From contig JBNGBT010000006.1 of NCBI GenBank assembly GCA_049903315.1, forward strand, positions 128,001-192,000: 64,000 nt of DNA. Direction: 5' to 3'. How positions within the stretch are numbered: position 1 is the stretch's first letter; each line of letters starts with the position of its first letter. Made by a program: the position numbers and the translations under genes. Shown here piece by piece: positions 25,757-51,564 of the stretch. The notes under the pieces are model-generated. The model searched no databases. It saw only the letters and a program-made list of their open reading frames with translations, and had not been told where the DNA came from. The stretch is from Candidatus Cloacimonadota bacterium (GTDB taxonomy: Bacteria > Cloacimonadota > Cloacimonadia > JGIOTU-2).

Positions 25757-25831
25757 GGCCCCATCGTCTAACGGTTAGGACTCAGGATTTTCATTCCTGC
25801 AATAGGGGTTCGATTCCCCTTGGGGTCACCA
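25757..25831 (+). tRNA. tRNA-Glu(TTC)
   Basis: GGCCCCA...CAGGA-TT-TTC-AT-TCCTG...GGGGTTCGATTCCCC...TGGGGTCACCA cloverleaf. Confidence 0.96.
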
Positions 25832-25864
25832 TTTGTGATTTCTTGCGAGAAATATCTCGTAAGT
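25826..25864 (+). repeat. attL-like junction (tRNA end plus right arm)
   Basis: TCACCATTTGTGATTTCTTGCGAGAAATATCTCGTAAGT matches 45585-45623 and 50464-50502 at 38 of 39 nt. Confidence 0.85.
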
Positions 25865-25926
25865 GCCTTAAAATTTGGGTAGTTAGGGGGGTTCGATAAC
25901 TCTTTGGGGCTTGATACTTTTTCTAA

Positions 25927-25956
25927 TAAAAAAGCCGCCACAAACGTGACGGCTCT
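25927..25956 (-). terminator. Terminator of the minus-strand hydrolase/lipoprotein operon
   Basis: AGCCGCCAC-aaac-GTGACGGCT hairpin with an A-run on the + strand (T-run on the - strand). Confidence 0.65.
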
Positions 25957-25986
25957 ATTCAATTTAGCAATAAAAGATGGATTGAA

Positions 25987-26613: not shown

Positions 26614-26652
26614 TTTATCTCCTGTAAAATTTTGATTTTGCATATATTACTC

Positions 26653-29781: not shown

Positions 29782-29820
29782 AGTCTTTCACTCCGTAAGC
29801 TATTGCATTATTTTAAGTTG

Positions 29821-29864
29821 AATGCTATATAGCAATATTCATATCATGAAAAAAAATCTGTCAA
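29821..29864 (-). promoter_or_regulatory. Promoter (-35 TTGACA) and palindromic operator ATTGCTATATAGCATT
   Basis: On the minus strand, TTGACA (29864-29859), a 22-nt gap, then the 16-mer (29836-29821). The same arrangement occurs at 31278-31321. Confidence 0.75.
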
Positions 29865-29948
29865 GAAATTACAAATTTATGAAAACCTTTTGATTTTATG
29901 TGTATGTGCTGGGCTGTATATATTTGAAGAAATGCTTGGAAAACTTTA

Positions 29949-30998: not shown

Positions 30999-31277
30999 CG
31001 AGATCCTTATATTCTTATTTATTAATAATATTATTTATTATATTTGATTCATTAATAATATAGCAGAAGAAAATTCCACGGCTGATATTATAGTGAAATA
31101 ATTATCATTGCTATAGATCATATGGATACTAAAAAAGAATTTCAAATATAATTTAGTCAAGTAAACAATAAATAAATGTTTTTGATAAATATGCTATTAT
31201 ATCTATAGATATTGGATGCCAATTGATTGTTTGTAAGGGAACGATGAAGATAATTTTTTAAGTTTTTCTAAAAAAAA

Positions 31278-31321
31278 TTGACAAAAGAATTTGAAATTAA
31301 TAGAAATTGCTATATAGCATT
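31278..31321 (+). promoter_or_regulatory. Promoter (-35 TTGACA) and palindromic operator ATTGCTATATAGCATT
   Basis: TTGACA at 31278-31283, a 22-nt gap, then the 16-mer at 31306-31321, upstream of the GH16 gene. Confidence 0.75.
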
Positions 31322-31365
31322 GATAGCTCGAAATAAAAAAATACTTCAATAAAGGGAGTTTAGCA

Positions 31366-34347: not shown

Positions 34348-34364
34348 TAAAAAAGGATAAATTG

Positions 34365-35831
34365 ATGAAAAGAGAAAGAGTTGAATCATCTAATAGCAGA
34401 AATTTAGTACCATTTGGACAGAAAGTTTCTTTTGGATTAGGAATGTTTGCCAATCAAATGTTTCCTGCTGTCCTGGGTATATTTATGGTGGTCTTGGTCC
34501 AGGATCTGGGCTTCCCGGGCTGGATGTGGGGAATTTTATTTTTCCTGCCAAGGATATTTGACGCGATTACGGATCCCATCATGGGTTTTATTTCGGACAA
34601 CACCAGATCAAAATGGGGCAGACGAAGACAGTATGTCTTTATTGGTGCCATCATCATAGGCGTTGCTTTTGTTGTTATGTGGCAGTTGTACAGTGAGAAT
34701 GGAGTAAATTACAACTTTATTTATTTCCTTCTCTTTTCATTTGTTTTTTATCTAGGTCTAACTATTTTTAGTGTGCCTTACGTTGCCATGGGCTATGAAA
34801 TGAGCAGCGATTACCACGAACGCACAAGCATTATGGCCGTTGCCCAATGGATCGGCCAGTGGGCCTGGGTTATTGCTCCCTGGTTTTGGGTTATCATGTA
34901 CAATCAGAAGTGGTTCCCGTCAGCTGATGTCGCTACAAGGAAACTTGCGGTATGGGTGGGGATCATTTGTATGTTGTTTGCTATGGTTCCAGCATTATTT
35001 CTGAAAAGCAGATCTACAGTTCATGAACACTACTCTCCTCTTAACTTAAAATCAATCAAGGGTAGTTTATTAGAAATTTTTTCAAACTTTAAGGAAGCAT
35101 TTAAGATTCCTCAGTTTGTAAAATTATGTTTATCAACGTTTTTTATATTTAATGCATTTAATACTATTGCAGCGTTTTCATTCTTTATCATAGTCTATTA
35201 TTTGTTTAGTGGAAATGCAGGGGCTGCTGGAGTTTGGCCTACACTTTTCGGTAGCTTGGCTTCATTAGTAACTACTTTTTTAGTTATTCCCATTGTTGCC
35301 CGTATGTCCAGGCTATTGGGCAAAAAAAGAGCGTTCATCGTATCGCAGAGCATATCAATCATCGGATATATTCTGTTGTGGTTTCTTTTTGTTCCAGGGA
35401 AACCTTACATGTTTATCCTAGCGCTTCCTTTCTTTTCCTTTGGAATTGGAAGTTTATTTACCTTGATGATGTCGATGACTTCAGATGTGATGGATCTGGA
35501 TGAGTTAAATTCTGGAAAACGTCGTGAAGGGGTATTTGGTGCTATTTATTGGTGGATGGTCAAGTTTGGCTTCGCTATCGCAGGATTATTAAGTGGTGTT
35601 ATTATGTCAGTAGTAGGATTTGATGCCAGTGCTGCTACGCAAACTGAGGGTGCCATAATAGGATTGAGGATTTTTTATTCCGGATTGCCAATACTGGGTA
35701 CGCTTACCGCCATTTTACTGATGCGTAAATATGATTTAACTGAAGAACGTGCAAATGAGATTCGAGCTGAACTGGAAAAACGTCACGCTCAGAAAACTGA
35801 AGTTGAAGAACTCGATTTAGAGAAATCTTAG
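34365..35831 (+). CDS. MFS sugar transporter, GPH (glycoside-pentoside-hexuronide) family
   Basis: PRIFDAITDPIMGFISD.TRSKWGRRR, EMSSDYHERT, GKRREG, about 12 TM segments. Confidence 0.92.
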   Translation: MKRERVESSNSRNLVPFGQKVSFGLGMFANQMFPAVLGIFMVVLVQDLGFPGWMWGILFFLPRIFDAITDPIMGFISDNTRSKWGRRRQYVFIGAIIIGVAFVVMWQLYSENGVNYNFIYFLLFSFVFYLGLTIFSVPYVAMGYEMSSDYHERTSIMAVAQWIGQWAWVIAPWFWVIMYNQKWFPSADVATRKLAVWVGIICMLFAMVPALFLKSRSTVHEHYSPLNLKSIKGSLLEIFSNFKEAFKIPQFVKLCLSTFFIFNAFNTIAAFSFFIIVYYLFSGNAGAAGVWPTLFGSLASLVTTFLVIPIVARMSRLLGKKRAFIVSQSISIIGYILLWFLFVPGKPYMFILALPFFSFGIGSLFTLMMSMTSDVMDLDELNSGKRREGVFGAIYWWMVKFGFAIAGLLSGVIMSVVGFDASAATQTEGAIIGLRIFYSGLPILGTLTAILLMRKYDLTEERANEIRAELEKRHAQKTEVEELDLEKS

Positions 35832-35841
35832 GATATATTAG

Positions 35842-37518
35842 ATGCGAAAGAATATATTTAAAACATTAGTTTTCAGTATTCTTTTAATATCACTTTTCGG
35901 TTGTGGAGTAAATAGTAGTAAAAAACTTAACTCCACATCCGAAATTTTGCTTACTTCAGCTACTGGAGAAAAACTTGCAGAACAAAAAAATGTTAGTTTT
36001 CAATCTGGAAAGGCAACCGGAAATGTAATACAAATCTTTCCTGATAGCTTAAAACAAACTATCGAAGGCATCGGCAGTTCTTTCACAGAATCTTCTGCTT
36101 TTGTTTTAGCTCATCTGGATGAACAGAAAAGACAGGAAGTGATGGAAAATATCTACGGGGAAAATGGAGCAAATTTCTCTTTGACCCGTACACATATCGG
36201 AGCTTGCGATTTTACAGTTAAAGGCAAATATTCCTATGATGATGTAACAGGTGATACAGAATTGAAAAGCTTCAGTATCGAAGAAGATTTAGCGGGATTC
36301 CAGAAATCTGAATTTCCGAAAATTCAAGATGAGAAGTTTGATCTTCTACCGATGATCAAACAGGCTTTGGAGATTAAAGCAAATCAGAAAGACCATGAAC
36401 TCAGAATAATTGCTTCAGCCTGGACAGCTCCTCCCTGGATGAAGGATATCGAAGAATGGTATATTCCTGGTTCTGAGGAAAACAACTGGCAGGGAACTGG
36501 CGGAGCACTCAAACCGGAATATTATTCTACATATGCAGATTACATTTCAAATTATCTCAATGCATACAAAGTAAGTGGTGTAGATATTTGGGGAATAACA
36601 CCTGTAAATGAACCACATGGCAATAATGGGCAGTGGGAAAGTATGCACTTCTCACCAGAAACACAAAATGAATTTATTAAGAAATGTTTGGGTCCCAGAT
36701 TAAGAGAAAGTGATCTCGCCGATGTAAAACTACTCATTTATGATCAAAATCGTGATGGACTTGAACATTGGGCTGAGGTGATCCTTTCAGATCCGGAAAC
36801 CCAACCTTACGTGTATGGAGCAGCAGTACACTGGTATGAGAGTACTTATAAAGTGTATGAAGATGTTTTGGATCGAGTGCATGATAAATATCCTCAATAC
36901 AAAATTATTCATACTGAAGGATGCATTGATGATCTCGGTAAAGACCCACCAAATGGTGTAACTGACCCGGTGGGATACAAAGAAAAAAATTGGTTCAATA
37001 ATGATGAATTCTGGTGGAACAAAAATGCTACTGATTGGGCTTATTCAGTTACCTGGCAGGGAGTGAATGCTGACGATCATCCTATTTATGTGCCAGTTCA
37101 TAGGTATGCACGAAATATCATTGTGAGTATCGATCACTGGGTAAGTGGTTGGATCGATTGGAATATTATTCTTGATAAACAAGGTGGACCAAATCATGTA
37201 GGAAATTTCTGTGGTGCACCCATCATGATAGATACTGATGCAAGGAAGGTCTATTATACACCAATCTTTTATGTGCTTGCTCAATTCAGCCGTACGATCC
37301 GACCTGGAGATAAAGCAGTCGCAATAGAGCAATATACACCAGGACTTAGCGAGGATGATATGCATGCTTGTGCCACTATTAATGAAGACAATATGTTGAG
37401 CGTGCAACTTTTAAATACGACAACTAGAGCCATTACATATAATTTACAGATACATGATAAGTATGCAGAGATCATGATCGACGCAAATTCAGTTCAAACT
37501 GTACAGGTTCAACTTTAG
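35842..37518 (+). CDS. GH30 glycoside hydrolase lipoprotein
   Basis: Lipobox LFGC, QTIEGIGSSFTES, SAWTAPPWMK, PVNEP, YDQNR, HWY, HTEGC, WIDWN, GGPNHVGN. Confidence 0.9.
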   Translation: MRKNIFKTLVFSILLISLFGCGVNSSKKLNSTSEILLTSATGEKLAEQKNVSFQSGKATGNVIQIFPDSLKQTIEGIGSSFTESSAFVLAHLDEQKRQEVMENIYGENGANFSLTRTHIGACDFTVKGKYSYDDVTGDTELKSFSIEEDLAGFQKSEFPKIQDEKFDLLPMIKQALEIKANQKDHELRIIASAWTAPPWMKDIEEWYIPGSEENNWQGTGGALKPEYYSTYADYISNYLNAYKVSGVDIWGITPVNEPHGNNGQWESMHFSPETQNEFIKKCLGPRLRESDLADVKLLIYDQNRDGLEHWAEVILSDPETQPYVYGAAVHWYESTYKVYEDVLDRVHDKYPQYKIIHTEGCIDDLGKDPPNGVTDPVGYKEKNWFNNDEFWWNKNATDWAYSVTWQGVNADDHPIYVPVHRYARNIIVSIDHWVSGWIDWNIILDKQGGPNHVGNFCGAPIMIDTDARKVYYTPIFYVLAQFSRTIRPGDKAVAIEQYTPGLSEDDMHACATINEDNMLSVQLLNTTTRAITYNLQIHDKYAEIMIDANSVQTVQVQL

Positions 37519-37527
37519 AGAGTTACT

Positions 37528-38643
37528 ATGAGAAAGTATGTATTACTAATCCTGCTCATAACAATTTCAGTAATGATATTGATTTCATGCAGCACGAGTA
37601 CAACTCTCGAACAAATTCGAACAAAACTGGAATCCAAAGAGCAATTTGAGCAAAAAGATCCAACATCAATACGCGAATTTGAGCCTTACCTGAATGGAAG
37701 TTGGATTGGGAATGCTGTTGCCTATAGTTGTTATCGGGGAGGACAAGCACCAGGAATCAAGGGACCGACAAAACAAGAGATCCTCGAAGATTTGAAGCTC
37801 ATAAAAAAGTATTGGAATTTAATTCGCATCTACAATGCCGATGACGATGCTGAACGTATCCTGAGTGTTATCCAGGAACATGATCTTTCGATTAAGGTTA
37901 TGCTGGGTGTATGGCTCGAGAATGAAGAGGAAGATTCTGTTAAAAGAGAAAATAACATAACCAATGTAGTGAGATCAATTGAATTGACTAATAAATATCC
38001 TGGAATAATTATCGCTGTTAATGTGGGTAATGAGACACAAGTTTTTTGGTCCTGGCATAGAATGAATACGCAAAACCTGATCCACTATATCAGAGCGGTT
38101 AGAAATAATATCACACTTCCTGTTACTACTGCAGATGATTACAATTTTTGGAACAAACCAGAGAGTGAAATTATAGCAGATGAAGTTGATTTTATCGTTA
38201 CTCATATTTACCCCTTATGGAATGGGAAGACATTGAATAATGCAATTCTATGGTTGGATTCAATATATCAAGATGTACAGAGTAAACATCCCGAACAACA
38301 AATAATCTTAGGTGAAATAGGCTGGGCAACTCAATACAATCCTGATAAAAAAGGAGAGGGTGAACAAGGTTCACTTGTAAAAGGTGAAGTTAGTATTCTT
38401 GCACAGGAAAAATTTCTAATCAATCTCAATAATTGGATTGACCAAAATCAGATTACTACTTTTCTTTTTGAGGTTTTTGATGAGCCTTGGAAAGGTGGTG
38501 GTGATAATTCAGGACCCACCGAAATTGAAAAAAACTGGGGTGTTTTTTATGAAGATCGTACCCCGAAAGAATCATTTAAGAACTTTTTGCTATATAAAAC
38601 TAGTGCAGATGGCAACATGGAATTTAATATTTTACGAAAATGA
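37528..38643 (+). CDS. GH17 family beta-1,3-glucan hydrolase lipoprotein
   Basis: Lipobox LISC, AYSCYR.GQ.PG, LIRIY, VMLGVW, NVGNE, PVTTAD, HIYP.W, GEIGWAT, FDEPWK, EKNWG. Confidence 0.88.
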   Translation: MRKYVLLILLITISVMILISCSTSTTLEQIRTKLESKEQFEQKDPTSIREFEPYLNGSWIGNAVAYSCYRGGQAPGIKGPTKQEILEDLKLIKKYWNLIRIYNADDDAERILSVIQEHDLSIKVMLGVWLENEEEDSVKRENNITNVVRSIELTNKYPGIIIAVNVGNETQVFWSWHRMNTQNLIHYIRAVRNNITLPVTTADDYNFWNKPESEIIADEVDFIVTHIYPLWNGKTLNNAILWLDSIYQDVQSKHPEQQIILGEIGWATQYNPDKKGEGEQGSLVKGEVSILAQEKFLINLNNWIDQNQITTFLFEVFDEPWKGGGDNSGPTEIEKNWGVFYEDRTPKESFKNFLLYKTSADGNMEFNILRK

Positions 38644-38759
38644 AAAGTAATACTGAATTAGAAAATCAAAATAATTCACAAATGGAATCTTTGTTTGGTG
38701 GAGACCCAATCAAGATTTCAATAACAAGAAAATATGACAAACCCTAAAAAGGAGAAAAA

Positions 38760-40109
38760 ATGAAAAAAACAATTAAGTTGTTTGTTATTACTTTGTTCTT
38801 ACTCTCAATGAGCACTATTGCGTTTGCACAAAACGCACCAATTGATTTTGAACCAGGTGGATATGGAGCTGACTGGACATGGACAGTATTTGAAAATGAT
38901 ACAAATCCACCAGTTGAGATCATAGCTAATCCCGATGTCTCAGATCCAAATACATCAGCAACCGTTGCAAAATTTACTACACTGCAAACAGGTCAACCCT
39001 GGGCAGGATGCGAAACATTACACGGTTCTGATATCGGAACGTTTACCCTGGACCAAACAAACTGTACAATTAAAATTATGGTCCACAAACCTGTAATCAG
39101 TGATGTAGGTATCAAATTGGTGAAACCTGATGGCTGGTCGATGGGAGAAATTAAAGTTGCGAATACCCTCGTAGATGGATGGGAAGAGCTTACATTTGAC
39201 TTCTCTAGCCAAGTATCAGATGGATATGATCAAATAGTAATTTTCCCGGATTTTGATTTGGCAGGCAGAACCCAAGATAATATTTGTTATTTCGATAATA
39301 TCACATTCTCTGAACAAGTTATCCCACAAGGCCCCACCGATCCTGCCCCAACTCCAACCCATGATCCAGATGATGTATTTTCTATTTATAGTGATGCTTA
39401 TACCAATCTTGCAAATACGAACTTCAATCCGAATTGGGGACAATCTACTGTTGTAACAGTAAATTATCAAGTGAGTGGAGATAACACCTTAAGATATCAA
39501 GCGCTTAATTACCAAGGAACGAACCTTGGTAGTGTTGATGGTGGAGTCCCTCAGGATGTGTCTGAATATGATTATCTTCATGTAGACTTTTGGACTACGA
39601 ATGCTACAACTTTGAATTTCTTCGTAATTGATCAGATCCCAGGCGAAGTGTCTTATTCATTGCCAATAACAACTGGAGAATGGGTGAGTGTAGATATTCC
39701 TTTGAGTTATTATTCAACTGGCGGAGAAGACCTGACTGATATACATCAATTCAAGATTGATGGTGGTGATGGTTCAAGCACAGAAGTGTGGTTTGATAAC
39801 TGGTATTTCTATAAAGAGGTTGGTATTGATGATCCCGTCTCTCCAACATCTCTTCTTGTAAAGAATCATCCAAATCCTTTCAAGCAAAGTACAACGATCA
39901 AGTTCTCTTTAACAGAACCTGGCCATGTTGAGCTTAAGGTTTATGATACCAAGGGTCGATTTGTTGAGACACTTGTTGATGATGATAGATTGCCAAATAC
40001 TTATCAACTTACCTGGAATGTTGATGACGCAAAATCCGGTATTTATTTCTACCGTCTAACAGTTAATGGGAAAATGATCGATACTAAGAGTATGATCATA
40101 TTGAAGTAA
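38760..40109 (+). CDS. Secreted putative carbohydrate-binding protein with C-terminal T9SS-like sorting domain
   Basis: Signal peptide, two beta-sandwich-like modules (WEELTFDFS; SIYSDAY..NFNPNWGQST; WVSVDIPLS), a Pro-rich linker, and HPNPF...KSMIILK. Confidence 0.75.
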   Translation: MKKTIKLFVITLFLLSMSTIAFAQNAPIDFEPGGYGADWTWTVFENDTNPPVEIIANPDVSDPNTSATVAKFTTLQTGQPWAGCETLHGSDIGTFTLDQTNCTIKIMVHKPVISDVGIKLVKPDGWSMGEIKVANTLVDGWEELTFDFSSQVSDGYDQIVIFPDFDLAGRTQDNICYFDNITFSEQVIPQGPTDPAPTPTHDPDDVFSIYSDAYTNLANTNFNPNWGQSTVVTVNYQVSGDNTLRYQALNYQGTNLGSVDGGVPQDVSEYDYLHVDFWTTNATTLNFFVIDQIPGEVSYSLPITTGEWVSVDIPLSYYSTGGEDLTDIHQFKIDGGDGSSTEVWFDNWYFYKEVGIDDPVSPTSLLVKNHPNPFKQSTTIKFSLTEPGHVELKVYDTKGRFVETLVDDDRLPNTYQLTWNVDDAKSGIYFYRLTVNGKMIDTKSMIILK

Positions 40110-40120
40110 TAATCAATTTT

Positions 40121-40155
40121 CAGCCGGTACATATCTTTGTGCCGGCTGTTTTTTT
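40121..40155 (+). terminator. Rho-independent terminator
   Basis: CAGCCGGTACA-tatctt-TGTGCCGGCTG followed by T7. Confidence 0.8.
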
Positions 40156-40210
40156 AGTATTGGGTTTATTCTCAAAGTATAAGGACGAAATCTTGAATCC
40201 TGAGATTGAT

Positions 40211-43200
40211 ATGCATTACCAGTTAAATACAAAGGGTGAGTTTGTTATCATTGATTATAACTCATCCAAACTATTCTCAAGTTTCTTCCCTGGAGTTGCC
40301 GGCAAAAACGGCATTCCCATGTGGACGTTTTACGTAAATCGCGGACAATGCATTTGCAGCATGGGGGTGGAAGGAAAACATCATCCGGTCATGGAATTTC
40401 TTCCTGCGAATTGGGCTTATAATCTAGTTTCAAGTCAGGGCTTTAGAACATTTGTAAAACTGCCCGATCATCCCTCGCTCAAATTCTATGAACCATTCCA
40501 AAACAATTTACGGGATAAAGATATGCATCGAACACAGCGTATGATCATAACATCTTTCCAATTGAGGTTGGAAGAAATGAATCATACTCTGGGGCTTAAA
40601 TTTACAATTGAGTATTTTAATATACCTCAAGATAATTATGCTGGACTTGTTCGCAAGCTGTATATAGAAAATCTGAATAATGAACACATCAAAATTGAAG
40701 GTCTCGATGGACTGCCACTTATTATTCCCTACGGTCTTGATGATTATGGCCTTAAACATATGAGACGATTAGTAGAAGCATTTGTTGAAGTTACCAATTA
40801 CGATACTAAAGTACCTTTATTTAAAGGGAAGGTGAAGCCTGCAGATCGGCCTGATGTGGTAAGGATAAAGAAAGGGAATTTTTATATTGGTTTTGATAAT
40901 GATTCAAAACTGGTTACTCCAATCGTTGATCCAGTGAAAATTTTTGGAAAGCGGGGTGATTACAATTATCCTGAAAATTTCTTAAAATCATCATCAGAGA
41001 ATTTGATCAATGGACAGATTTTTGAGAATCGTTTGCCGTGTGCGATGGGTGTTATTACTACTAACCTCGCAGCAGGTGAATCATTCACATATACATCGAT
41101 TATTGGTCATGCAGGATCTGTTCAGGAATTGAATGAACTGGTACCTAAAATTACTAATCAAGAATACATTGAGAATAAAGCAACTGAAAACAAGAATATA
41201 GTTAAAGCATTAAGTCAACAAAATTTTATTTGTAGTTCGGAACCTGTTCTGAACCTTTATGCCAGACAGAATTTTATAGATAATACTCTGCGTGGTGGAT
41301 TTCCCTACACAATAAAAGGTAAAGAGAGTTCTACAACCCTGCATCTCTATTCACGCAAACATGGCGATTTGGAAAGGGATTATAATGATTACCGCCTCAA
41401 TCCGACACCGTATTCTCAGGGAAATGGGAACTTTCGGGATGTGAATCAAAATCGTAGATGCGATATCTTTTTCAATCCGGATGTGCAGGAAGGAAACGTT
41501 GAACATTTTTACAATCTGATCCAGTTGGACGGTTTTAATCCACTTGTGATAAAAGAAGTCCGTTTCACAGTTTTAAATCAGGAAAAGCTGAAAAACATAC
41601 TGGCCGAATATCTTGGTTGTGAAAAAATAGAAATTGTGAGTACATTTTTACAACAACCATTTGCCCCCGGTGAATTGTTGCTTTTCCTAAGAGAGCAAAA
41701 AATTGATGTTACAGATGATATTGATACCTTCATCGGTGATGTTCTCGGGGTTTGTAAAAAGAACTATGGTACTCAATATGGAGAAGGTTTCTGGACAGAT
41801 CATTGGACGTATAATCTGGATCTTCTGGAAAATTATCTGGCTGTATATCCTGACAAAAAATATTATATCTTATTCGATAAGAAATCATTCTCGTTTTATG
41901 ATAATCCTCATCGTGTTCAATCCCGAGATGATAAATATGTGATCTGGGATGGAAAAGCCATACAACTGAGTTCGGTTGTTTTTGATGATGAAAAAGATTT
42001 ATTAATCAAGCAGCGTACTTTAAACCAAAACAAGGTTCATACGAATTTTGGGAAAGGTGATGTTTATTATACGAACCTATTCACTAAAATACTTTCTCTG
42101 CTTGTTAACAAATTTGCTTCTTTGGATGCTGAAGGAGTCGGTGTAGAAATGGAAGCAAATAAGCCGAACTGGTATGATGCGTTGAATGGTTTGCCTGGTT
42201 TACATGGTTCCAGTATCAGTGAAACTCTGGAAGTTAAACGACATATTTTATTCCTTTTAGAGTCCTTTGAAGAACTTGATCTAGAAGGTCAGAATTTGTT
42301 GGTTTTCGAAGAAATGAAAGAGTTTTTGAACGAACTCCATAATCTTCTAAGGACGCAATTAACTCCCTTTGAATTCTGGGCTAAATCTGCATCTATTAAG
42401 GAAGAATATCGTGAAAAGACTCGATTGGGAATCAGCGGTAAAGAAGTAGTATTATTAAAAGATGATATAATTGTTTTTCTACAAGACGGTCTAAAAAAAC
42501 TGGATGTAGGTATCAAAAAGGCGTGGAACAAAAAGGATAATGTGATCTCTACATATTTCATTAACGAACCTGTTGAATACGAAGAAATAAAGCTATCTGA
42601 TTCTAATGGAAATCAAATTTTGAAGCGAAATGCAAGGGAAATGCCGTGCATTAGAATAAAAAAGTTCAAGCAAAGACCATTACCTCTATTTCTGGAAGGA
42701 CCGGTTCATTACTTGCGTTGTAATACAAACAAGGAACATGCCGAAACATTTGCAACCAATATTAAAAAAAGCGGATTGTTCGACACTAAGCTGAAGATGT
42801 ATAAAGTGAATGAATCTCTGGAAGATCAGCCACCTGAAATTGGTCGTGCTAGAACTTTTACTCCAGGTTGGTTTGAGAATGAATCTATCTGGCTGCACAT
42901 GGAGTATAAATACATGCTGGAATTGATGAGGAATGGTCTTTATAAACAGTTTTACGATGATTTCAAAAATGTTTTTGTTCCTTTTATGAAACCCGAAGTA
43001 TATGGTAGAAGCATTCTGGAAAACTCATCCTTTATTGTAAGCAGTGCAAATTCAGATCCATCATTACATGGTAACGGATTTGTCGCAAGGTTGAGTGGAG
43101 CGACTGCTGAATTCATTAATATCCTGATGTTCATGGTAATCGGGCAGAAACCGTTTGAAGTTGATAATAATGAGCTTCAGTTTTGTTTGAAACCTGCGCT

Positions 43201-43501
43201 TCCTGGTTGGCTATTCACCAGGAAACCGTACAGTAAAAGATTATTCCTGCATGATAACTGGCAGGAAGTAGAATTTAAAGAAAACACATTCAGCTTTATG
43301 TTCTTAGGTGAAATTCTCGTTACGTATCACAATCCGAACAGAAAGGATACTTTTGGTGTCAATGCTGTGGTACCTGCATCTTGGAAATTAATCGATGAAG
43401 AAGGAAATATAGAGATAATCAAAGATAACAAAATAAAAGGTGATATTGCTGAAAAAATCCGAAGAAGAGAGATAAAACGGATTTATGTAAATTTAAATTG
43501 A
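40211..43501 (+). CDS. Putative beta-1,3-glucan phosphorylase, GH161-like
   Basis: FSSFFPGVAG..GIPMWTFYVNRGQ, YSRKHGDLERDYN, SQGNGNFRDVNQNRR, KPNWYDALNGLPG, ENESIWLHMEYKY, RLSGATAEF. No signal peptide. Start moved to the ATG at 40211 because the longer ORF begins inside a terminator. Confidence 0.72.
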   Translation: MHYQLNTKGEFVIIDYNSSKLFSSFFPGVAGKNGIPMWTFYVNRGQCICSMGVEGKHHPVMEFLPANWAYNLVSSQGFRTFVKLPDHPSLKFYEPFQNNLRDKDMHRTQRMIITSFQLRLEEMNHTLGLKFTIEYFNIPQDNYAGLVRKLYIENLNNEHIKIEGLDGLPLIIPYGLDDYGLKHMRRLVEAFVEVTNYDTKVPLFKGKVKPADRPDVVRIKKGNFYIGFDNDSKLVTPIVDPVKIFGKRGDYNYPENFLKSSSENLINGQIFENRLPCAMGVITTNLAAGESFTYTSIIGHAGSVQELNELVPKITNQEYIENKATENKNIVKALSQQNFICSSEPVLNLYARQNFIDNTLRGGFPYTIKGKESSTTLHLYSRKHGDLERDYNDYRLNPTPYSQGNGNFRDVNQNRRCDIFFNPDVQEGNVEHFYNLIQLDGFNPLVIKEVRFTVLNQEKLKNILAEYLGCEKIEIVSTFLQQPFAPGELLLFLREQKIDVTDDIDTFIGDVLGVCKKNYGTQYGEGFWTDHWTYNLDLLENYLAVYPDKKYYILFDKKSFSFYDNPHRVQSRDDKYVIWDGKAIQLSSVVFDDEKDLLIKQRTLNQNKVHTNFGKGDVYYTNLFTKILSLLVNKFASLDAEGVGVEMEANKPNWYDALNGLPGLHGSSISETLEVKRHILFLLESFEELDLEGQNLLVFEEMKEFLNELHNLLRTQLTPFEFWAKSASIKEEYREKTRLGISGKEVVLLKDDIIVFLQDGLKKLDVGIKKAWNKKDNVISTYFINEPVEYEEIKLSDSNGNQILKRNAREMPCIRIKKFKQRPLPLFLEGPVHYLRCNTNKEHAETFATNIKKSGLFDTKLKMYKVNESLEDQPPEIGRARTFTPGWFENESIWLHMEYKYMLELMRNGLYKQFYDDFKNVFVPFMKPEVYGRSILENSSFIVSSANSDPSLHGNGFVARLSGATAEFINILMFMVIGQKPFEVDNNELQFCLKPALPGWLFTRKPYSKRLFLHDNWQEVEFKENTFSFMFLGEILVTYHNPNRKDTFGVNAVVPASWKLIDEEGNIEIIKDNKIKGDIAEKIRRREIKRIYVNLN

Positions 43502-43517
43502 AAATGGAGAATGTATA

Positions 43518-45449
43518 ATGAAAGATATTGAAGTTAGAATTTCTGAGTTATTAGTGAAAATGACTCTTGATCAGAAAGTAGGACAGATCGTCCAGCCGGA
43601 AAGGCAATTTGTTACCCCGCAAGAAGTAAAGAAATATCATATTGGTTCAGTTCTCAGTGGTGGCGGATCGGTTCCCGGTGATAACAAGCCGGATGATTGG
43701 ATAAAAATGAATGATGCTTACTGGGAAGCTTCCATGGAAGAAGACGAAGAGCATCTGGCAATTCCGATCATCTATGGAGTGGATGCAATCCATGGAAACA
43801 CAAACGTGAAAGGGGCAGTTGTTTTCCCGCATAATATCGGATTAGGTGCAGCTAATGATCCTGACTTGCTGGAAAGAATTGCTGCTGTTACTGCCAAGGA
43901 GATCGCAGCAACGGGCGTTGAATGGACTTTTGCTCCAACACTTGCAGTGGCTCGTAACGATCATTGGGGTAGAACGTATGAAAGCTATTCCGAAGACCCT
44001 AAAATTGTCTGCGATTACGCCCCCAGATTTGTTAAGGGACTGCAAGGAAATTATGGGGAAGAAAACGTGATCGCCTGTGCTAAACACTGGGTTGGTGACG
44101 GAGCAACACTGCATGGAATTGATCAGGGAGATATGTGTATCAGTGAACATGAATTACGTAGAATTCATGTTCCTCCTTACAAAGCTGCGATAGATGCTGG
44201 TGTGCTGACTGTGATGGTTTCGTTGAGCAGCTGGTATGGAGAGAAGTGCCATGGTCACAAATTTCTGATTACTGATCTTCTGAAAAATGAACTGGGATTT
44301 AATGGCTTTGTGATCTCCGATTGGGATGGTATCGATTATCTAGATAAGAGTTATGAAGAGTCTGCTGTAATGGCTATGAATGCAGGTATGGATATGTTCA
44401 TGATCACCGGAAAATGGAAAGAATTTATCCAACACATGAAAGCAAATATTCATAACGGCCACATTCCCATGGAACGTCTTGATGATGCCGTGCGCAGAAT
44501 TTTGCGCGTAAAATTCTTGTTTGGTATGTTTGAAAAACCGCGTCCTACAGAAAGAACACTATCGCTGGATCATTCTTGTTTTGGCTCACTGGAACATCGC
44601 GAAGTCGCAAGAGAAGCAGTTCGTAAATCTCTGGTCATGCTCAAGAATGATGAAGATATACTACCACTAAATAAAAATGCTCGAATTTTAGTTGCTGGGA
44701 AAAATGCTCACAACCGCGGACATCAATGTGGTGGATTTACCGTAGCTTGGCAAGGTGTTGATGATAATGACGAGTCAAAAGACAAAACATATATCATGAC
44801 AGATTCTGAAAAAGAGAAACCGCGAGATAAAAAGATAAGTAACGGAATATCTCATAGATCATCAATCATCGGCGGATCTTCGATTTGGGAAGGTATTCAA
44901 GCTGTTGCTCCAAATGCTCATTTGAGTATTGATGGCTCAGATGCTGATCCTGCTAAATATGATGTAGCAATTGTTTGCATCGGGGAAGTCCCTTATGCAG
45001 AAATGCTTGGTGATATTCGTGTTGAGGGATTGAGAAAAGGTTTAAAGATCAGCAAAGGTTCAAGTATTGATGACACGCTACCGGGTGATGAAATTCCTAT
45101 TGTGAAAAAAGGACCGTATGGAACTCATCTCTATTTGCATGAACTTCATCCCGAGGATATTGCAACTATTAAAAATATTACCAGCAAAGGAATTCCGGTT
45201 GTCACGATTATGATCTGCGGTCGTCCGTTAGTTATTGAACAAGAGCTTGAAGAATCGAAAGCATTTGTCATTGCCTGGTTCCCAGGTTCCGAAGGGCAGG
45301 GAGTGGCTGATGTTATCTTCGGTGATTATGATTTCCAAGGCAAACTGAGTTTTTCTTTATCGCGTTTCGATCAGGAAAACTGGAACCTAGGCGATGAAAA
45401 TTATAATCCGCTTTTCCCGTATGGATATGGATTGAAATATGATAGATAA
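43518..45449 (+). CDS. GH3 beta-glucosidase (cytoplasmic)
   Basis: YGVDAIHG, FPHNIGLGA, RNDHWGRTYESYSED, AKHWVGDG, ISDWDG, AWFPGSEG, PLFPYGYGL. Confidence 0.95.
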   Translation: MKDIEVRISELLVKMTLDQKVGQIVQPERQFVTPQEVKKYHIGSVLSGGGSVPGDNKPDDWIKMNDAYWEASMEEDEEHLAIPIIYGVDAIHGNTNVKGAVVFPHNIGLGAANDPDLLERIAAVTAKEIAATGVEWTFAPTLAVARNDHWGRTYESYSEDPKIVCDYAPRFVKGLQGNYGEENVIACAKHWVGDGATLHGIDQGDMCISEHELRRIHVPPYKAAIDAGVLTVMVSLSSWYGEKCHGHKFLITDLLKNELGFNGFVISDWDGIDYLDKSYEESAVMAMNAGMDMFMITGKWKEFIQHMKANIHNGHIPMERLDDAVRRILRVKFLFGMFEKPRPTERTLSLDHSCFGSLEHREVAREAVRKSLVMLKNDEDILPLNKNARILVAGKNAHNRGHQCGGFTVAWQGVDDNDESKDKTYIMTDSEKEKPRDKKISNGISHRSSIIGGSSIWEGIQAVAPNAHLSIDGSDADPAKYDVAIVCIGEVPYAEMLGDIRVEGLRKGLKISKGSSIDDTLPGDEIPIVKKGPYGTHLYLHELHPEDIATIKNITSKGIPVVTIMICGRPLVIEQELEESKAFVIAWFPGSEGQGVADVIFGDYDFQGKLSFSLSRFDQENWNLGDENYNPLFPYGYGLKYDR

Positions 45450-45520
45450 TATCGATAGATAAAAAATCAACTTGTGGATTTCAAACAAGATTAATTGTTC
45501 TTTGAATTTATAGTACATCT

Positions 45521-45669
45521 TTCAACACCTCATTCATTACCACGAGTTCTTTGTAGATTTCTATGTAATCTTCGAGGTTAAGGATCACCATTTGTGATTT
45601 CTTGCGAGAAAAATCTCGTAAGTAATTTATGATAAGTAAATTAAGGGTGTTCGATAAAGAGCACCCTTT
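45521..45669 (+). repeat. Junction repeat, copy A (left arm, tRNA-end core, right arm)
   Basis: 149 bp identical to 50400-50548. Weaker similarity continues to about 45743 and 50620. Confidence 0.95.
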
Positions 45670-45721
45670 CTCTTATCCTAGCAATACAAAATCTATAACT
45701 GACACTATATCAGTGAATTGC

Positions 45722-45741
45722 GGGGTTCGATTCCCCTTGGG
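45722..45741 (+). repeat. Second tRNA-Glu 3' fragment (T-arm)
   Basis: GGGGTTCGATTCCCCTTGGG, identical to 25805-25824. Confidence 0.85.
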
Positions 45742-46236
45742 TCTATTAGGCAATTCTGATATTTTAATGAATAATTTACTTCTTATTTGAGTTGTGGATC
45801 CGAGGATGGGTTTTTATATACAGAAAACATAATAAAAAAAATTGACACCCATTACACAATTCCAATTAATCTAGTTCAAAGGAAAAAATATGATGGCAAC
45901 GAACGATAATTGGAAGAATGTATTGGGAGGACATACCCCCCCCATTTTATTTTAGTAACTAACGCATATTATGCAAGTTACCACAAACCGGCATATTTTA
46001 ACAAGGAAAAACATAGCAAAAATACAATATTACTATTTCTCGGGAAAAATAAATTACTTCATTCCGACCTTACTATTCCGGTTCCCGGGAATAGTGGGGT
46101 GCAAGGAATATGAGTACTGAATCGGCTAAGGTTGGATTGAATATGATGTTGTGGGATATGTATTATGGGTCGTTCTTTTAAAAGAAAATGTGTTAATTAT
46201 TAGTTCATTAAATGACAATGAGACAAAAAAGGAGAA

Positions 46237-48068
46237 ATGATGAAAAAGTATATTTCACTATTAGTGGTACTTATAATATTATTATTCTGTAGCAACTTAT
46301 TTGCAGGTTATCTTTATGTCGAAATATGGAATGCTACAGGATATGAGATGAATGATTGTTGTATTTATCTTAACATCTCAGAAGAAGTTAGTGGAGCAAC
46401 ATGGCAGCCTGGGTTTACACCTTATGTGTTTGAAGTTGATGATCCCTCCAGTGTATATGTATGGGCTTTTTGTTATGCTGATTGCTATGGTTGGGAATTT
46501 TATGCGAATGGAGATGATTACTCTTACTGGAATCCGAATACACAGCATTGGGAAGCTTCTGTAGAAGTTAATGGTGTGTATAATCCTTCACAGATAAATT
46601 TTACTATTACTGTTAACAATGAAATCGATGAAGCATCCAATTGTAGTTTGATCAGAAATCCAAACACTAATCCGGAAACTCTCTTTGTAAACCAAACGAT
46701 TTCTACTGGGACAACAACCTATACTGAATATGAGATATATGTAGATGATGAACTAATGGTTGAGGGTGACGTTGATGGATTTTATTCCGGACAGGTATAC
46801 GATGTAAGTGATTTGGAAGTTGTAGATTATAATTTTAACTCTTCAACATATGTTTTGGATATCTATGCAGAGTTAGACTTAGAATATGATGATACTCCTC
46901 CTGATTATGACTACAATGTAACCAGTTTATCTTCATCAGGTTGGAACTGGGTCTCTTTCCCTGTTCTTGATCCCGATTATGACGATCCTATAGACTATGT
47001 TCTGGAACCAATACTCGATGATTTGGATGAAGTTGTTCATGATCAGGATTACATATATTGGACTGGTACTAGTTGGCAAAACAATATTGGAGATTTTCAA
47101 AGTATCGATGGATATAAGATACAGATGGACGATGATGCTGAACTTGAAGTTGCGGGATGGGTTGAAGATCCTGATACAGAAATACCCCTCTACGAAGAGG
47201 AGGAAAATTGGATAGGATATTTTATCCCATACAGCCATCACCTTCATGGGCATTTGGAGATGCCTGGCAATATCTAAACTGTATTCAAGCAGAAGATTGG
47301 AGTATGTACAAAAAGAACGGGATATGGTATGGACCTGCCGGTGTCACTATAGATTATGGAGATGGTTATGTAGTATGGGTTGACGATGATTGTACTCTTG
47401 AATGGGTTTGTTTTGGTCAAATGAAAAGCTATGAGAAACCTGAATCACAATATTTCTCTTATGAGGAGAAGGCAAGTTATGAAGCAATCGATATTACAGG
47501 CATTGATGAAAGTGTGTTAGAAATAGGTGTTTTTGAGAACGATATTTGCGTCGGAGCTTCAGTTGTGGAAAATGGTTTTGCACAAATTCTTGCATATACT
47601 GAGAATGTAAATAAAAAAGGTTCTGAACTTACTTTTCAAATAGTGAGTGGAAAAGGAGATAAGCAAGAGATATGCAGCTTTTATGTGTATGATTTTGATA
47701 AAAATACCTACATAAAAAAGAATCTCATCTCCGGCAATCAGAAGTACTCACTCGTTAAATTGAGCAAGGGAGAGGGAAACCAAACACCTATCGAGCTTTC
47801 ACTCTCACAGAATATTCCGAATCCCTTCTCTTCTCATACTCTTATATCATATTCAATTCCGAAAGAATCTCATGTGAAGATATCAGTTTACAATTTAAAG
47901 GGCCAAAGAGTGAAAACTCTCGTTAATGAAATATTATCAGTTGGTAGCTATTCTACAGTATGGAATGGCACTGATGATAAAGGTATCACATTACCAAACG
48001 GTGTTTATTTCTATAAACTTGATAATGACAATACATCAATCAGTAAAAAAGTAATAATAATGCATTAA
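46237..48068 (+). pseudogene. Secreted acidic protein with T9SS-like CTD, split by an apparent 1-nt deletion near 47237 (ORFs 46237-47277 and 47208-48068)
   Basis: ORF1 has a signal peptide but no CTD, and ORF2 has a CTD but no signal. Adding one base gives continuous ENWIGYFIPYS[Q/H]SPSWAFGDAW. Confidence 0.7.
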
Positions 48069-48083
48069 TTAGCATATATGAGA

Positions 48084-48118
48084 ACAAGACCGTATTGAAA
48101 AATACAGTACGGTCTTGT
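48084..48118. terminator. Intergenic stem-loop
   Basis: ACAAGACCGTATTG-aaaaata-CAGTACGGTCTTGT, without a strong T-tail. Confidence 0.5.
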
Positions 48119-48145
48119 AACTCTTACTAATATTTCTGGAGTCAT

Positions 48146-50371
48146 ATGCAAAAATTTTTAATTCAATTAATTCTCACAATATTATTTGTTTGTTTTGCAT
48201 CATTTTTATATTCTCATATAATCATCGTCGATATCAATGGAACAGGAAATTACACGAGCATACAGGAAGGAATAGAAAATTCATCAAGCGGTGACACCGT
48301 TTTGGTACATCCCGGAACATATTATGAGAATATAAATTATAATGGAAAGAACATTACGGTAGCAAGTTTATATATCAATACACAAATTGATTCATTTGTA
48401 AAAAATACTATAATTGACGGTAACCAGAATGGGAGTGTGGTAACCTTCGAAAGTGGAGAAGATACCTCTGCAGTTCTTTGTGGATTTACTCTTCAAAATG
48501 GAAGTGGTACATATAATTTACATAATATTAGAGGTGGAGGAATTTTTTGTATCAACTCTAATCCTAAGTTATTAAGTTGTAATATCCAAAATAATAATGC
48601 CGAGTTCGGTGGTGGTATTCATTGCAGATATTCAATGATACATATCTCAGGAACAACGATCCGTTATAACCATTCGATATATGACGGCGGAGGGATATAT
48701 TTAAGAGACGAGTCTAATATCATTTTCGATAGTATTAACCGATCAAACATTTATTTAAATTACGCAGGATGCGGTTGTGATATAGGTTCTTATGAAATAA
48801 GCGGTATAGAAGTAATAGTAGATACGTTTACCGTTATTGAACCAGATGATTACAATACATATCCTTATGAAAGCTATGATTTTGATATTTATAGTAATAA
48901 GATAGAAATGATAAATTGTGACCTATATATTAGTCCTTTGGGTAATAACACAAGTAGTGGATTTTCACCTGATGATCCATTGAAAACAATATCCTATGCG
49001 ATGACAAAGATAAAGTCGGATAGCATAAGCTGTAATACAATATATCTATCAAATGGGATATATTCACCAGCTACGAATGAGGATTTATTCCCGATTAATT
49101 GTAAAGATTATGTTTCTATTCAAGGGGAGGATAAGGATTTAACTATTCTTGATGGGAGTAATGAATGGTTTTTACTATATTCCTATGAAGACAATGATTA
49201 TTCTATAAAAGATATTACATTACAAAATGGTTTTAATGATATAACAGGAGGGGGTATGAGTATTCATTATGGACAAGATATATTTTTGAAGGATATAAAT
49301 TTTATTAACAATAAAGCTGAAGTGGGTGGTGGAGGATTGAATATATTTGAAACACAGGGGGTATTTGAAAATTTAACAATTCGTAACAATTCGTCTGATG
49401 GAGGAGGTGGTCTCTTTGTTTCTAATAATTCAAATCCTGTATTTATTAATTGTATTATCGATAGAAATAATACAATTACTCCAGGTTGGGGATATGCAGG
49501 AGGAGTAAGTTGCACAGTTGAGTGTAATCCAGTATTTATTAACACGGCAATAACAAATAATGAATCAGATGAAACAAGCGGATTAAGTGCTTCTGGTGGT
49601 GCTGGGGATTATTGCGATCCAATTCTAATAAATTGTACTATTTGCGATAATTCAGAAAACCCATATGGAACTATTTATCAAGGAGATGGATCTCATATTA
49701 GTTTAATAAATTGCATATTAAGGAATTATTCAGATGATGAGGTTGTATTCTCTACCAATCCACCAGCAAAAAAAGTCACTGTATCGTACTCAAATATTAA
49801 AGGTGGTATTGATGCTATAAACACGAATAACAATGGTAGCATTATCTGGGGAGACGGCAATATAGACGAAGATCCGCTGTTTGTTGGCGGGGATCCCTTC
49901 AGTTATGAGTTAACACCAGAATCTCCCTGCATCGATGCCGGCACACCGGACACAACAGGACTGCATTTACCTGCAACGGACTTAGCAGGTAATCCGAGAA
50001 TATTCAATGGAAGAATAGATATCGGTGCATATGAGTGTCAGGATACAGTAAGCGTGGATGAACCGGACACGAGTTTTATTCATAATTTGTATTTATTCCA
50101 GAATACCCCGAATCCTTTTACGAATGAGACGGAAATATTGTTCATCACTGCGGATTACGAAAGAGTAGAAGATTACACACTTTCCATATACAATACCAAA
50201 GGACAGCTTGTCCGCAGGTTCGATGGTAGAACTAATAATTTTTGGGTAAAGACAAAGATTGTCTGGGACGGAACGGATGAACGGGGCAAACACGTAGCAC
50301 CCGGAACATATTTATATAAATTAGAATACAACGGACATGCAGTGGTGAGGAAGATGGTGAAGGTGAGATAG
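48146..50371 (+). CDS. Secreted right-handed parallel beta-helix protein with C-terminal T9SS-like sorting domain
   Basis: YTSIQEGI..GDTVLVHPGTYYEN, repeated GGGI/N-x-A motifs, SPCIDAG...DLAGNPRI..GRIDIGAYE, and QNTPNPF...KMVKVR. Confidence 0.85.
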   Translation: MQKFLIQLILTILFVCFASFLYSHIIIVDINGTGNYTSIQEGIENSSSGDTVLVHPGTYYENINYNGKNITVASLYINTQIDSFVKNTIIDGNQNGSVVTFESGEDTSAVLCGFTLQNGSGTYNLHNIRGGGIFCINSNPKLLSCNIQNNNAEFGGGIHCRYSMIHISGTTIRYNHSIYDGGGIYLRDESNIIFDSINRSNIYLNYAGCGCDIGSYEISGIEVIVDTFTVIEPDDYNTYPYESYDFDIYSNKIEMINCDLYISPLGNNTSSGFSPDDPLKTISYAMTKIKSDSISCNTIYLSNGIYSPATNEDLFPINCKDYVSIQGEDKDLTILDGSNEWFLLYSYEDNDYSIKDITLQNGFNDITGGGMSIHYGQDIFLKDINFINNKAEVGGGGLNIFETQGVFENLTIRNNSSDGGGGLFVSNNSNPVFINCIIDRNNTITPGWGYAGGVSCTVECNPVFINTAITNNESDETSGLSASGGAGDYCDPILINCTICDNSENPYGTIYQGDGSHISLINCILRNYSDDEVVFSTNPPAKKVTVSYSNIKGGIDAINTNNNGSIIWGDGNIDEDPLFVGGDPFSYELTPESPCIDAGTPDTTGLHLPATDLAGNPRIFNGRIDIGAYECQDTVSVDEPDTSFIHNLYLFQNTPNPFTNETEILFITADYERVEDYTLSIYNTKGQLVRRFDGRTNNFWVKTKIVWDGTDERGKHVAPGTYLYKLEYNGHAVVRKMVKVR

Positions 50372-50399
50372 GAACCGAGAAACAAATCACAGTATGTCC

Positions 50400-50548
50400 T
50401 TCAACACCTCATTCATTACCACGAGTTCTTTGTAGATTTCTATGTAATCTTCGAGGTTAAGGATCACCATTTGTGATTTCTTGCGAGAAAAATCTCGTAA
50501 GTAATTTATGATAAGTAAATTAAGGGTGTTCGATAAAGAGCACCCTTT
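50400..50548 (+). repeat. Junction repeat, copy B
   Basis: Identical to 45521-45669. Confidence 0.95.
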
Positions 50549-50646
50549 TTTATTTTCCATTAAATACAAAGTTTATGACTAATCCTATATCAATGAGTTG
50601 CAGGATTCGTTTCTCATTTGGTTTCTTCAAAGTTTTCTTTTAAAAA

Positions 50647-50834
50647 AATAAAAAAGCCGCCACAATCGCGACAGCTTTATTCACTTTAGCAAATTAAGAT
50701 GGATTGAACTAATTTATTTTTGAGACGGTTTTCAATTCTGTATTATAATAATATCCCCATTCGCCTATTGCTGCTAATGCCTGTGCTGGATCGTTGTAGA
50801 GTGGCAAAAGATTCATTTCAGAAGAATCATATAA
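50647..50834 (-). pseudogene. Relic 3' end of the glucan-locus lipoprotein gene plus its terminator region
   Basis: Homologous to 25925-26112. Translates to DSSEMNLLPLYNDPAQALAAIGEWGYYYNTELKTVSKIN*, versus DPSEMNLLPLYNDPAQALAAMGEWGYYYNTELKTISKIN* in the intact gene. Confidence 0.85.
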
Positions 50835-50926
50835 GTGTTGATAAATTGCATTATCAATATATTAAAATATTTGACATGCGAAATGCGAATGTAAATTTCA
50901 GAAAAAATATTAATCGTGGAGTAAAA

Positions 50927-51445
50927 ATGAATAAAAATTTATTGATATGTATATTATTCATAATATTTGTATCATGTCTAAACGCCACAGATTTGGATAC
51001 TGGTTTTGAAAAAGGAAACATTCCGGGCTCATGGAAGGTTGTTAACAATAATGGTGATAGTTATCAATGGGAAGCGTATAAAGCCACGATCGGTTCACAT
51101 TCAGGCGATTGGATAGTGAGAGTACAAACTCATTCAACGGCACTTGATGACTGGTTGATAACCCCCAGACTGAAGCCGGTTGAGGGTCATAATATTTTAT
51201 CTTTTTATTATATGTCATATAGTGATAGTTACCCTGAAGATTTTAATGTAAAATTATCTACAACCGGTAATACGATCAGTGATTTCACTGTAAACTTAGG
51301 TTCTGTGTCAAATGCACCGATACAATGGACAAAATTTGAATATGATCTTAGTGCGTATAATGGAAAATCAATATATATAGCAATTCAGTGTACTTCTGAT
51401 ACAGGCTGGTTCCTCTATGTTGATGATATAAAGATCGACGAATAA
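50927..51445 (+). CDS. Small secreted cleaved-adhesin / choice-of-anchor J-like beta-sandwich protein
   Basis: Signal peptide, GFE.G.IP.SW, DDWLITP, W..FEYDLSAY.G.SIYIAI, LYVDDI. GGAG RBS before the ATG at 50927. Confidence 0.75.
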   Translation: MNKNLLICILFIIFVSCLNATDLDTGFEKGNIPGSWKVVNNNGDSYQWEAYKATIGSHSGDWIVRVQTHSTALDDWLITPRLKPVEGHNILSFYYMSYSDSYPEDFNVKLSTTGNTISDFTVNLGSVSNAPIQWTKFEYDLSAYNGKSIYIAIQCTSDTGWFLYVDDIKIDE

Positions 51446-51467
51446 TCGTAACTTAGTCGAAGTACTA

Positions 51468-51532
51468 ACCTCATTCAAACCGCAAGCTCTTTATAAATCT
51501 CAATGCAATCTTGGAGGTTAAGGGTCACCATT
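51468..51532 (+). repeat. attR-like junction, diverged copy C (left arm plus tRNA-end core GGGTCACCA)
   Basis: Aligns with 45527-45592 with about a dozen substitutions and one indel. The right arm is absent and a terminator follows directly. Confidence 0.8.
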
Positions 51533-51535
51533 ATT

Positions 51536-51564
51536 AAGCCGTCACAACCGTGGCGGTTTTGTTA
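51536..51564 (+). terminator. Hairpin directly after the last tRNA-end copy, possibly the original tRNA operon terminator
   Basis: AAGCCGTCAC-aacc-GTGGCGGTTT followed by TGTT. Related to the hairpins at about 25932 and 50654. Confidence 0.6.

Follow-up and report, generated by a model that had tools for sequence, protein, structure and literature searches.

The stretch analysed here, hereafter the window, comprises 64,000 nucleotides of a Candidatus Cloacimonadota genome (contig JBNGBT010000006.1, positions 128,001 to 192,000 of the forward strand); a host of this kind is also what its many FlgD-Ig-tailed proteins point to. It carries, behind a tRNA-Glu(TTC) gene, an array of three cargo modules bounded by putative attachment (att) junctions. 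The 3′ end of the tRNA gene is repeated as a core at 45582, 50461 and 51522 (copies A, B and C). Counted from the tRNA, the array consists of a right arm (R0), module 1, left arm A with its core and right arm A, module 2, left arm B with its core and right arm B, module 3, left arm C with its core, and a host hairpin. The arms were absent elsewhere in the 71 contigs of the genome, and no recombinase gene is encoded in modules 1 to 3.

Read on the minus strand from the core, copies A (ATG at 45591) and B (ATG at 50470) both translate to MVILNLEDYIEIYKELVV, a tail of 27 residues with the stop as codon 28, and copy C (from 51531) to MVTLNLQDCIEIYKELAV followed by a stop. This stop of C at codon 19 results from a 1-nucleotide deletion also present in locus L031 and is not the true end of the tail. 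A and C differ by 11 substitutions within 18 codons. Seven are synonymous third-position changes (codons 10, 11, 12, 13, 15, 16 and 18) and four change the amino acid (codons 3, 7, 9 and 17); the binomial probability of at least 7 synonymous changes out of 11 is 0.003 at a synonymous-site fraction of 0.21, and 0.009 if transitions are weighted 3:1. At the tRNA junction the same frame reads LRDISRKKSQMVTPRGIEPLLQE up to a stop. These translations and counts reproduce exactly those of the original prediction, in which the arm was said to evolve like coding sequence and to be, plausibly, the end of a recombinase gene.

Further arms were collected from 4 of the 10 other genomes of the genus, by DNA similarity, and from eight metagenome stretches. 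We analysed 13 arms, L029, L030 and L034 having been dropped as repeats of arms already counted. A search of the phylum (232 genomes) gave only three weak and short additional matches, and the arm pattern had no match in viral contigs. The pairwise ratio of non-synonymous to synonymous differences per site (pN/pS) among the 13 arms was 0.12 to 0.13 in the tail frame, the lowest of all frames, versus 0.24 to 11.8 in the other five. Because the metagenome arms had been chosen by a pattern degenerate at third positions, the count was repeated on the six arms that are unbroken and had been retrieved by DNA similarity. These gave 14 synonymous versus 4 non-synonymous alleles for an expected synonymous fraction of 0.19, and 15 of the 18 variant alleles fell at third positions. 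Codons 14 to 23, outside the search pattern, showed 10 synonymous and 6 non-synonymous alleles in 11 arms. The identity of the left arm in nine arms is 0.77 to 0.90 through codon 25, 0.63 at codons 26 to 28 and 0.30 to 0.41 past the stop, so that homology ends at the stop codon. The conserved span of 84 bp exceeds the half-site of a large serine recombinase (LSR), which is about 25 to 30 bp long. The stop at codon 28 is kept in 8 of the 13 arms; C, L031, L028b, G002 and L033 are broken or without stop, and L027 stops at codon 31, three codons late. The synonymous bias thus persists in a larger set that includes unbiased arms, where its disappearance would have spoken against the original prediction. 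The arm pattern fits past selection followed by decay, and the bias would mostly be a fossil of selection that acted on the gene when the islands were still active.

Searching among longer proteins with the tRNA-junction frame gave two matches among four candidates. The protein P0002 (495 residues, PF00239 and PF07508, C-terminus SYRTPLTTPILRHLRDISRNKSQMVTPRGIEPLLQE) is identical to the tRNA-junction frame of the window at 34 of 36 residues. Its catalytic domain has the resolvase YxRxS motif, with Y9, R11 and S13 invariant in 12 sequences. The predicted model (predicted local distance difference test score, pLDDT, of 81; below 50 for residues 480-495) contains helices at 332-379 and 385-428, and its fold matches serine integrase structures with an E value of 5e-21. 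Like the solved serine integrases (9dxd/9dxh, Bxb1 9iu2, LI/A118 4kis and phiC31 9rah, 15-21% identical to it), P0002 combines a resolvase domain, a recombinase domain and a predicted zinc-ribbon/coiled-coil region, the features of an LSR, all of them upstream of the crossover. A frameshift-aware alignment to P0002 scored 43-148 for eight right arms, versus 0-6 for the other ten junction flanks and 0-11 for shuffles. The matching stubs measure 69 bp at the tRNA, in frame throughout, 80-86 bp at A and B, where one frameshift is needed, and up to 215 bp in genome G008. The open reading frame (ORF) 50387-50569, which had been described as open through the right arm, does exist, but its SNTLNLL portion is off-frame with respect to the recombinase. 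Judged from sequence, the right arm represents the 3′ end left over from an LSR gene, in agreement with the remnant gene end that had been proposed. A tyrosine-integrase origin of the arms was rejected, since none of six PF00589 matches fell on this contig and the arm is LSR coding sequence.

The other junction state was found in a second protein. A profile of the tail run against 1.84 billion representatives retrieved four proteins of 28-73 residues. P0004, a natural fragment of 73 residues, continues from an LSR end (FVLFPEG, YRTPLT) through MV in frame into ILNLEDYIEIYKDLIVMNEVLKDLL, and its tail reads LNLEDYIEIYK. The attP form of the enzyme end thus exists in nature, found here as a fragment only. 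The expectation that full-length proteins end in these sequences was borne out for P0002, which ends in the right-arm frame and the tRNA-antisense tail, but the attP tail was found only in the four short proteins, P0004 among them.

Intact relatives display both ends in one island. PF07508 occurs in 24 of the 232 phylum genomes, and 30 of the matching loci were examined. Among them, genomes G182 and G209 hold LSR frames of 504 codons that read into a tRNA-Glu(TTC) behind a tRNA-Lys and end in VSRRGVEPLLQE or VSRRGVEPLMQE; these LSRs are 37% identical to P0002 and carry PF13408. At the far end of both islands lies a core with an in-frame tail of 44-45 residues, and these tails and that of the window have Y-x-E-I-x-x-E-L in common. 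On the evidence of their sequence, the two islands have the same split layout as the window. A MerR-type helix-turn-helix (MerR-HTH) gene lies just upstream of the LSR in both (L065:2264-3406 and L067:2259-3224) and may act as a regulator or directionality factor. Immediately beyond the G209 island (L067:7713-11791) are a 1067-codon and a 295-codon ORF, which from their motifs we take to be Cas9 and Cas1.

A wider LSR scan gave at least 416 related stretches among at least 600 pattern matches, of which 80 loci were kept. Among the matches listed, 51 of the 80 have an ORF that extends antisense into a tRNA or transfer-messenger RNA (tmRNA), the tRNA being tRNA-Glu in 11. After 11 of the 80 loci had been dropped as short, cut off or masked, the tail profile reached p<0.05 on 8 of the 18 C-termini without a tRNA ending versus 2 of the 51 with one, again among the matches listed. 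The tail therefore looks like the ancestral last helix of the family, the helical state being a low-confidence prediction. For the tRNA-His, -Met and -Arg LSRs of the phylum, no convincing far-end core was found in the DNA examined. P0002 as single query retrieved no related locus from genome or viral contigs, and alignment A5 retrieved none from viral contigs. Locus L115 (G008:C9:43460-43882) carries a decayed P0002-like LSR (45%, two stops) that reads into the isoacceptor tRNA-Glu(CTC).

The cognate enzyme is missing from the genome of the window. A tblastn search gave only the 36-residue stub and a tRNA-His LSR, 26% identical to P0002, which is the only PF00239 match of the genome; with P0002 as query, a search of 21 family genomes likewise turned up no intact cognate LSR. 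What is left in window and genome are stubs of 69-86 bp. Neither enzyme form can now be made here, and no tail switch is possible. The switch that had been proposed stands as to its two C-terminal forms, represented by P0002 and P0004, but with the recombinase body deleted it is a fossil at this locus. The tRNA-His LSR (G000:C6:1336-2983, L046), the only LSR of the genome, likewise reads antisense into its tRNA; its far end was not found.

Comparison within the genus shows the site in several states. Of the 11 genus genomes, 9 yielded the tRNA-Lys/Glu locus. It is empty in four (G001, G006, G007 and G009), where the tRNA is directly followed by the hairpin seen after core C, and a right arm follows the tRNA in five. 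Locus L031 equals the window locus minus modules 1 and 2, with the join at the core, and is 93% identical over 50461-51431. In G003 a module-2-like unit adjoins the tRNA and the beta-glucan cluster lies beyond a B-type junction, the reverse of the window order; at that position the window keeps only a 185-bp remnant of the cluster. In L032 the beta-glucan module is terminal. The cluster itself (window 25987-45449) recurs at different positions in G003, L028 and L032. With an intact target tRNA, a far-end core repeat and empty sites in relatives, the array has the anatomy of a tRNA-targeting island, and its att-flanked cargo without a recombinase of its own that of cis-mobilizable, non-autonomous elements. 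Behind right-arm stubs, the host hairpin recurs within the array, which points to deletions that would have taken away nearly a whole island. On the tRNA-sense strand the right arms form strong hairpins (fold z scores of -3.0 to -7.7; -3.0 for 25832-25960) with terminator-like matches, which likely explain why the stubs persisted; promoter-like sites were at chance level (37 vs 35.3).

These data lead us to the following model. The gene frames show that attP is placed inside the predicted LSR gene and that the two junction states encode different C-termini. No stop interrupts the gene inside the island end, P0002 and the LSRs of G182 and G209 end in tRNA-antisense residues, and the alternative end is represented by P0004, by the far-end tails of G182, G209, L125 and L126, and by junctions A and B. 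The island family would target tRNA 3′ ends with an LSR gene that runs across attP. In an excised circle, or at the junction of tandem islands, the gene would continue beyond the right arm, cross the core (TGGTGAnCC) and enter the left arm, ending in the 27-residue, probably helical tail. Integration at tRNA-Glu would swap this tail for 13 residues antisense to the tRNA, while the right arm would supply replacement hairpins to the tRNA transcript; excision or tandem stacking would restore the tail helix. Islands would have accreted in tandem, and deletion of the recombinase bodies would have left the stubs and three stranded cargo modules.

We estimate at about 0.9 the probability of this reading as a whole, namely that the arms are attP halves of LSR-gene-spanning islands at tRNA 3′ ends whose recombinase has since been lost, stranding the modules. 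Several observations weigh against it. The subset L027 to L033 is biased by its search pattern, and because the arms are related (A and B look homogenised) the P values are overstated. No full-length protein with the exact attP tail was found with the profile among the 1.84 billion representatives; ORF 50387-50569 gave 43 candidates among longer proteins, none with E ≤ 10, its N-terminal part being off-frame; and a search with the C-terminal region of P0002 returned only P0002 itself among 1496 candidates. P0002 and P0004 are known here from their protein sequences. A convincing far-end tail was seen within 10 kb in only 2 of the 51 tRNA-ending loci (L125 and L126, among the matches listed), and the tail helix is predicted with a mean pLDDT of 55. 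Excision was not seen in contigs of 4 of 20 sequencing runs, and no RNA run carrying the sequence was listed. Two candidate joints, in runs X1 and X3 (45741 to 45585 and 45623 to 50647), were rejected, as they fit the tRNA-proximal junction mapped onto paralogous pieces, and a third in X19 was rejected as having only 22 bases on one side. In X1 and X3 the contig depth of modules 2-3 is about 85% of that of the flanks; it was not used as evidence, since depth is no share of cells and one contig includes host DNA.

The conservation of the left arm could have other causes. Were it a stand-alone micropeptide still under selection, the open 27-codon frame with an ATG at A and B, the strong synonymous bias and the stop kept in most arms would all be expected. 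The first codon, though, is supplied by the opposite side of the core, 4 of the 13 arms have CTG, TTG or GTG there, no Shine-Dalgarno-like run is visible by eye within 25 nt upstream at the tRNA junction, A, B or C, and P0004 carries the peptide as an LSR end. With 5 of the 13 arms also broken or stopless and one ending late, we give this alternative, which the original prediction had left standing, hardly any credence. Conservation as a DNA site for recombinase binding or as an RNA structure, with an incidental codon pattern, is very unlikely as well. The arm does belong to an att site, folds weakly (z of -1.7 and -2.4), and one antisense frame also has a low pN/pS (0.24-0.26). That antisense ratio is nevertheless expected where third positions coincide, and the tail frame remains the lowest, with third positions prevailing in the unbiased set. 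Conservation stops at the stop codon, no clear dyad symmetry surrounds the core (best 11-12 of 29 matches; the crossover dinucleotide was not located), and P0004 again disfavours this explanation.

A further alternative accepts the anatomy of the gene-spanning island and concerns its present state: the modules may still be mobile non-autonomous cassettes served by a recombinase in trans. Module content and order do differ at core boundaries, as seen in G003, L031 and L032, and the near identity of R0 to an intact LSR implies a recent loss or an enzyme still in circulation. On the other hand, the genome and the family genomes searched lack a cognate LSR, a change of module order could also come about by homologous recombination between arms or by in-place deletions, and the A and B cores carry one changed base (TGGTGATCC). 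We regard present mobility as possible but doubtful. Bolder, and improbable in our judgement, is the proposal that the helix is a family-wide activity switch, the left arms shared tail donors and the array an integron-like cassette stack. If so, a recombinase next to the tRNA would be tail-less and quiet until a newer module pushed it outward, where it would read into the left arm of that module and regain its tail. Modules without recombinase would keep a coding-competent left arm completing the enzyme of a neighbour or visiting island, and module order at tRNA-Glu would set recombinase activity. The variable module order is a hint of this, as is the B junction compared with that of G003 (same cargo, no LSR), which differs by 9 synonymous versus 2 amino-acid-changing codons, although the homogenisation of A and B weakens the codon hint.

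The features of the array are listed in Table 1.

Table 1. Positions of the tRNA genes, arms, cores, hairpins and cargo modules in the window.
Feature	Position	Strand	Remarks
tRNA-Lys(TTT), upstream neighbour of the target tRNA	25662..25736	+	ARAGORN
tRNA-Glu(TTC)	25757..25831	+	3′ end GGGTCACCA is integration target and att core
tRNA-antisense-encoded tail MVTPRGIEPLLQE and stop, integrated form	25791..25832	-	identical to last 13 residues of P0002
Right arm R0, 69-bp in-frame LSR 3′ stub	25833..25901	-	+ strand folds into hairpins
Copy of the hairpin found behind the tRNA at empty sites; putative deletion scar	25934..25953	+	
Module 1, beta-glucan utilisation cluster, without recombinase	25832..45591		
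Left arm A and core (45582-45591), attP-state tail MVILNLEDYIEIYKELVVMNEVLKDVL and stop	45508..45591	-	
Right arm A, LSR 3′ stub with one frameshift	45592..45671	-	+ strand: two hairpins, 45601-45622 and 45643-45668
Exact 20-nt tRNA-Glu T-arm copy within decayed LSR-derived region	45722..45741	+	
Module 2, FlgD-Ig/Por-secretion-tail genes 46237-47277, 47208-48068 and 48146-50371; without recombinase	45592..50470		
Left arm B and core (50461-50470), tail MVILNLEDYIEIYKELVVMNEVLKDIL and stop	50387..50470	-	
Right arm B, LSR 3′ stub with one frameshift	50471..50556	-	terminator-like hairpin 50522-50547, + strand
Hairpin (50656-50675) and remnant of first beta-glucan-cluster gene	50647..50831		89% identical to 25925-26109
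Module 3 cargo, small cleaved-adhesin/MAM-domain gene	50927..51445	+	
Left arm C and core, tail broken by 1-nt deletion, terminal attR-type junction	51475..51531	-	lesion common to L031
Host hairpin following the tRNA at empty sites, attB right arm	51538..51557	+	

Module 1 encodes GH16, GH17-like, endo-1,6-beta-glucanase-like, GH149-like, GH3 and GH2-like (glycoside hydrolase) proteins and a GPH transporter, several of these assignments resting on matches below the curated cut-off. In module 2, the two overlapping ORFs at 46237-48068 resemble one frameshifted FlgD-tailed gene; near 47234-47236, a 1-base insertion is present in contigs of runs X14 and X19. Despite their different cargo, junctions A and B share about 155 bp without a mismatch (45516-45670 versus 50395-50548), which suggests recent gene conversion or duplication. 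The segment corresponding to the T-arm copy in G002 and G003 aligns at LSR residues SPKSLSNR; the copy may be a tRNA-like gene stretch later overwritten by tRNA, or a tyrosine-type attR scar. Contig G008:C63 holds an unoccupied tRNA-Glu/hairpin site (L022:95) and, 15 kb away in direct orientation, an attP-like junction (L022:14947). In G008, whose contamination is 6%, additional copies or fragments of tRNA-Glu are accompanied by right arms.

An integrase gene that spans its own attP has already been published for serine integrases and for phage Mx8, and this locus adds to them. In Mx8 (Magrini et al. 1999, as cited in the available part of PMC4701971), attP is inside the gene of a tyrosine integrase; integration swaps its C-terminus for 13 residues, with 112 residues replaced, as against 27 here, and lower activity is reported for the swapped form. 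By analogy, the odds that the tail matters for LSR activity are about even, and the trimmed enzyme could still be active, since none of the core domains lies beyond the crossover. The same source describes streptococcal integrative and conjugative elements in rumA with attR within the serine integrase gene, as here, and an integrase of different length and C-terminus when excised; as presented there, they are conjugative, use a protein-coding target and have no tRNA-antisense tail. The Dehalococcoides ssrA islands with serine integrase DsiB (McMurdie et al. 2011; PMC3146451, available part) target tmRNA instead of tRNA-Glu and carry an integration module of six genes that includes a second small recombinase; the text available reports divergent ends and no conserved attP-side tail. 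The present islands fall outside that group in the strict sense, with their tRNA-Glu target and, in relatives, a MerR-HTH gene beside the LSR in place of the dsiAB module. That paper also uses the concept of cis-mobilizable elements formed by accretion, that is, tandem att-flanked cargo without recombinase at one target, as here. By contrast, the lost gene is still recognisable in each module here from its stub and tail. The accessible part of PMC12884075 contains nothing on tails, and our literature search found no publication on this tRNA-Glu island family.

The window and its relatives provide a matched fossil set of attB (as empty sites), attL, attP-like junctions, attR, the parent enzyme and both tails. 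Because all these parts are present, the question raised in 2011 for DsiB, whether the integrase needs its attP-encoded end, is now directly testable. There is also a practical consequence for LSRs mined for genome engineering: those taken from integrated genomes may be assayed without their native C-terminus, because 51 of the 80 loci (among the matches listed) encode tRNA-derived filler tails. For the bacterium itself, loss of the recombinase would have fixed a beta-glucan cluster and surface-protein genes at a tRNA.

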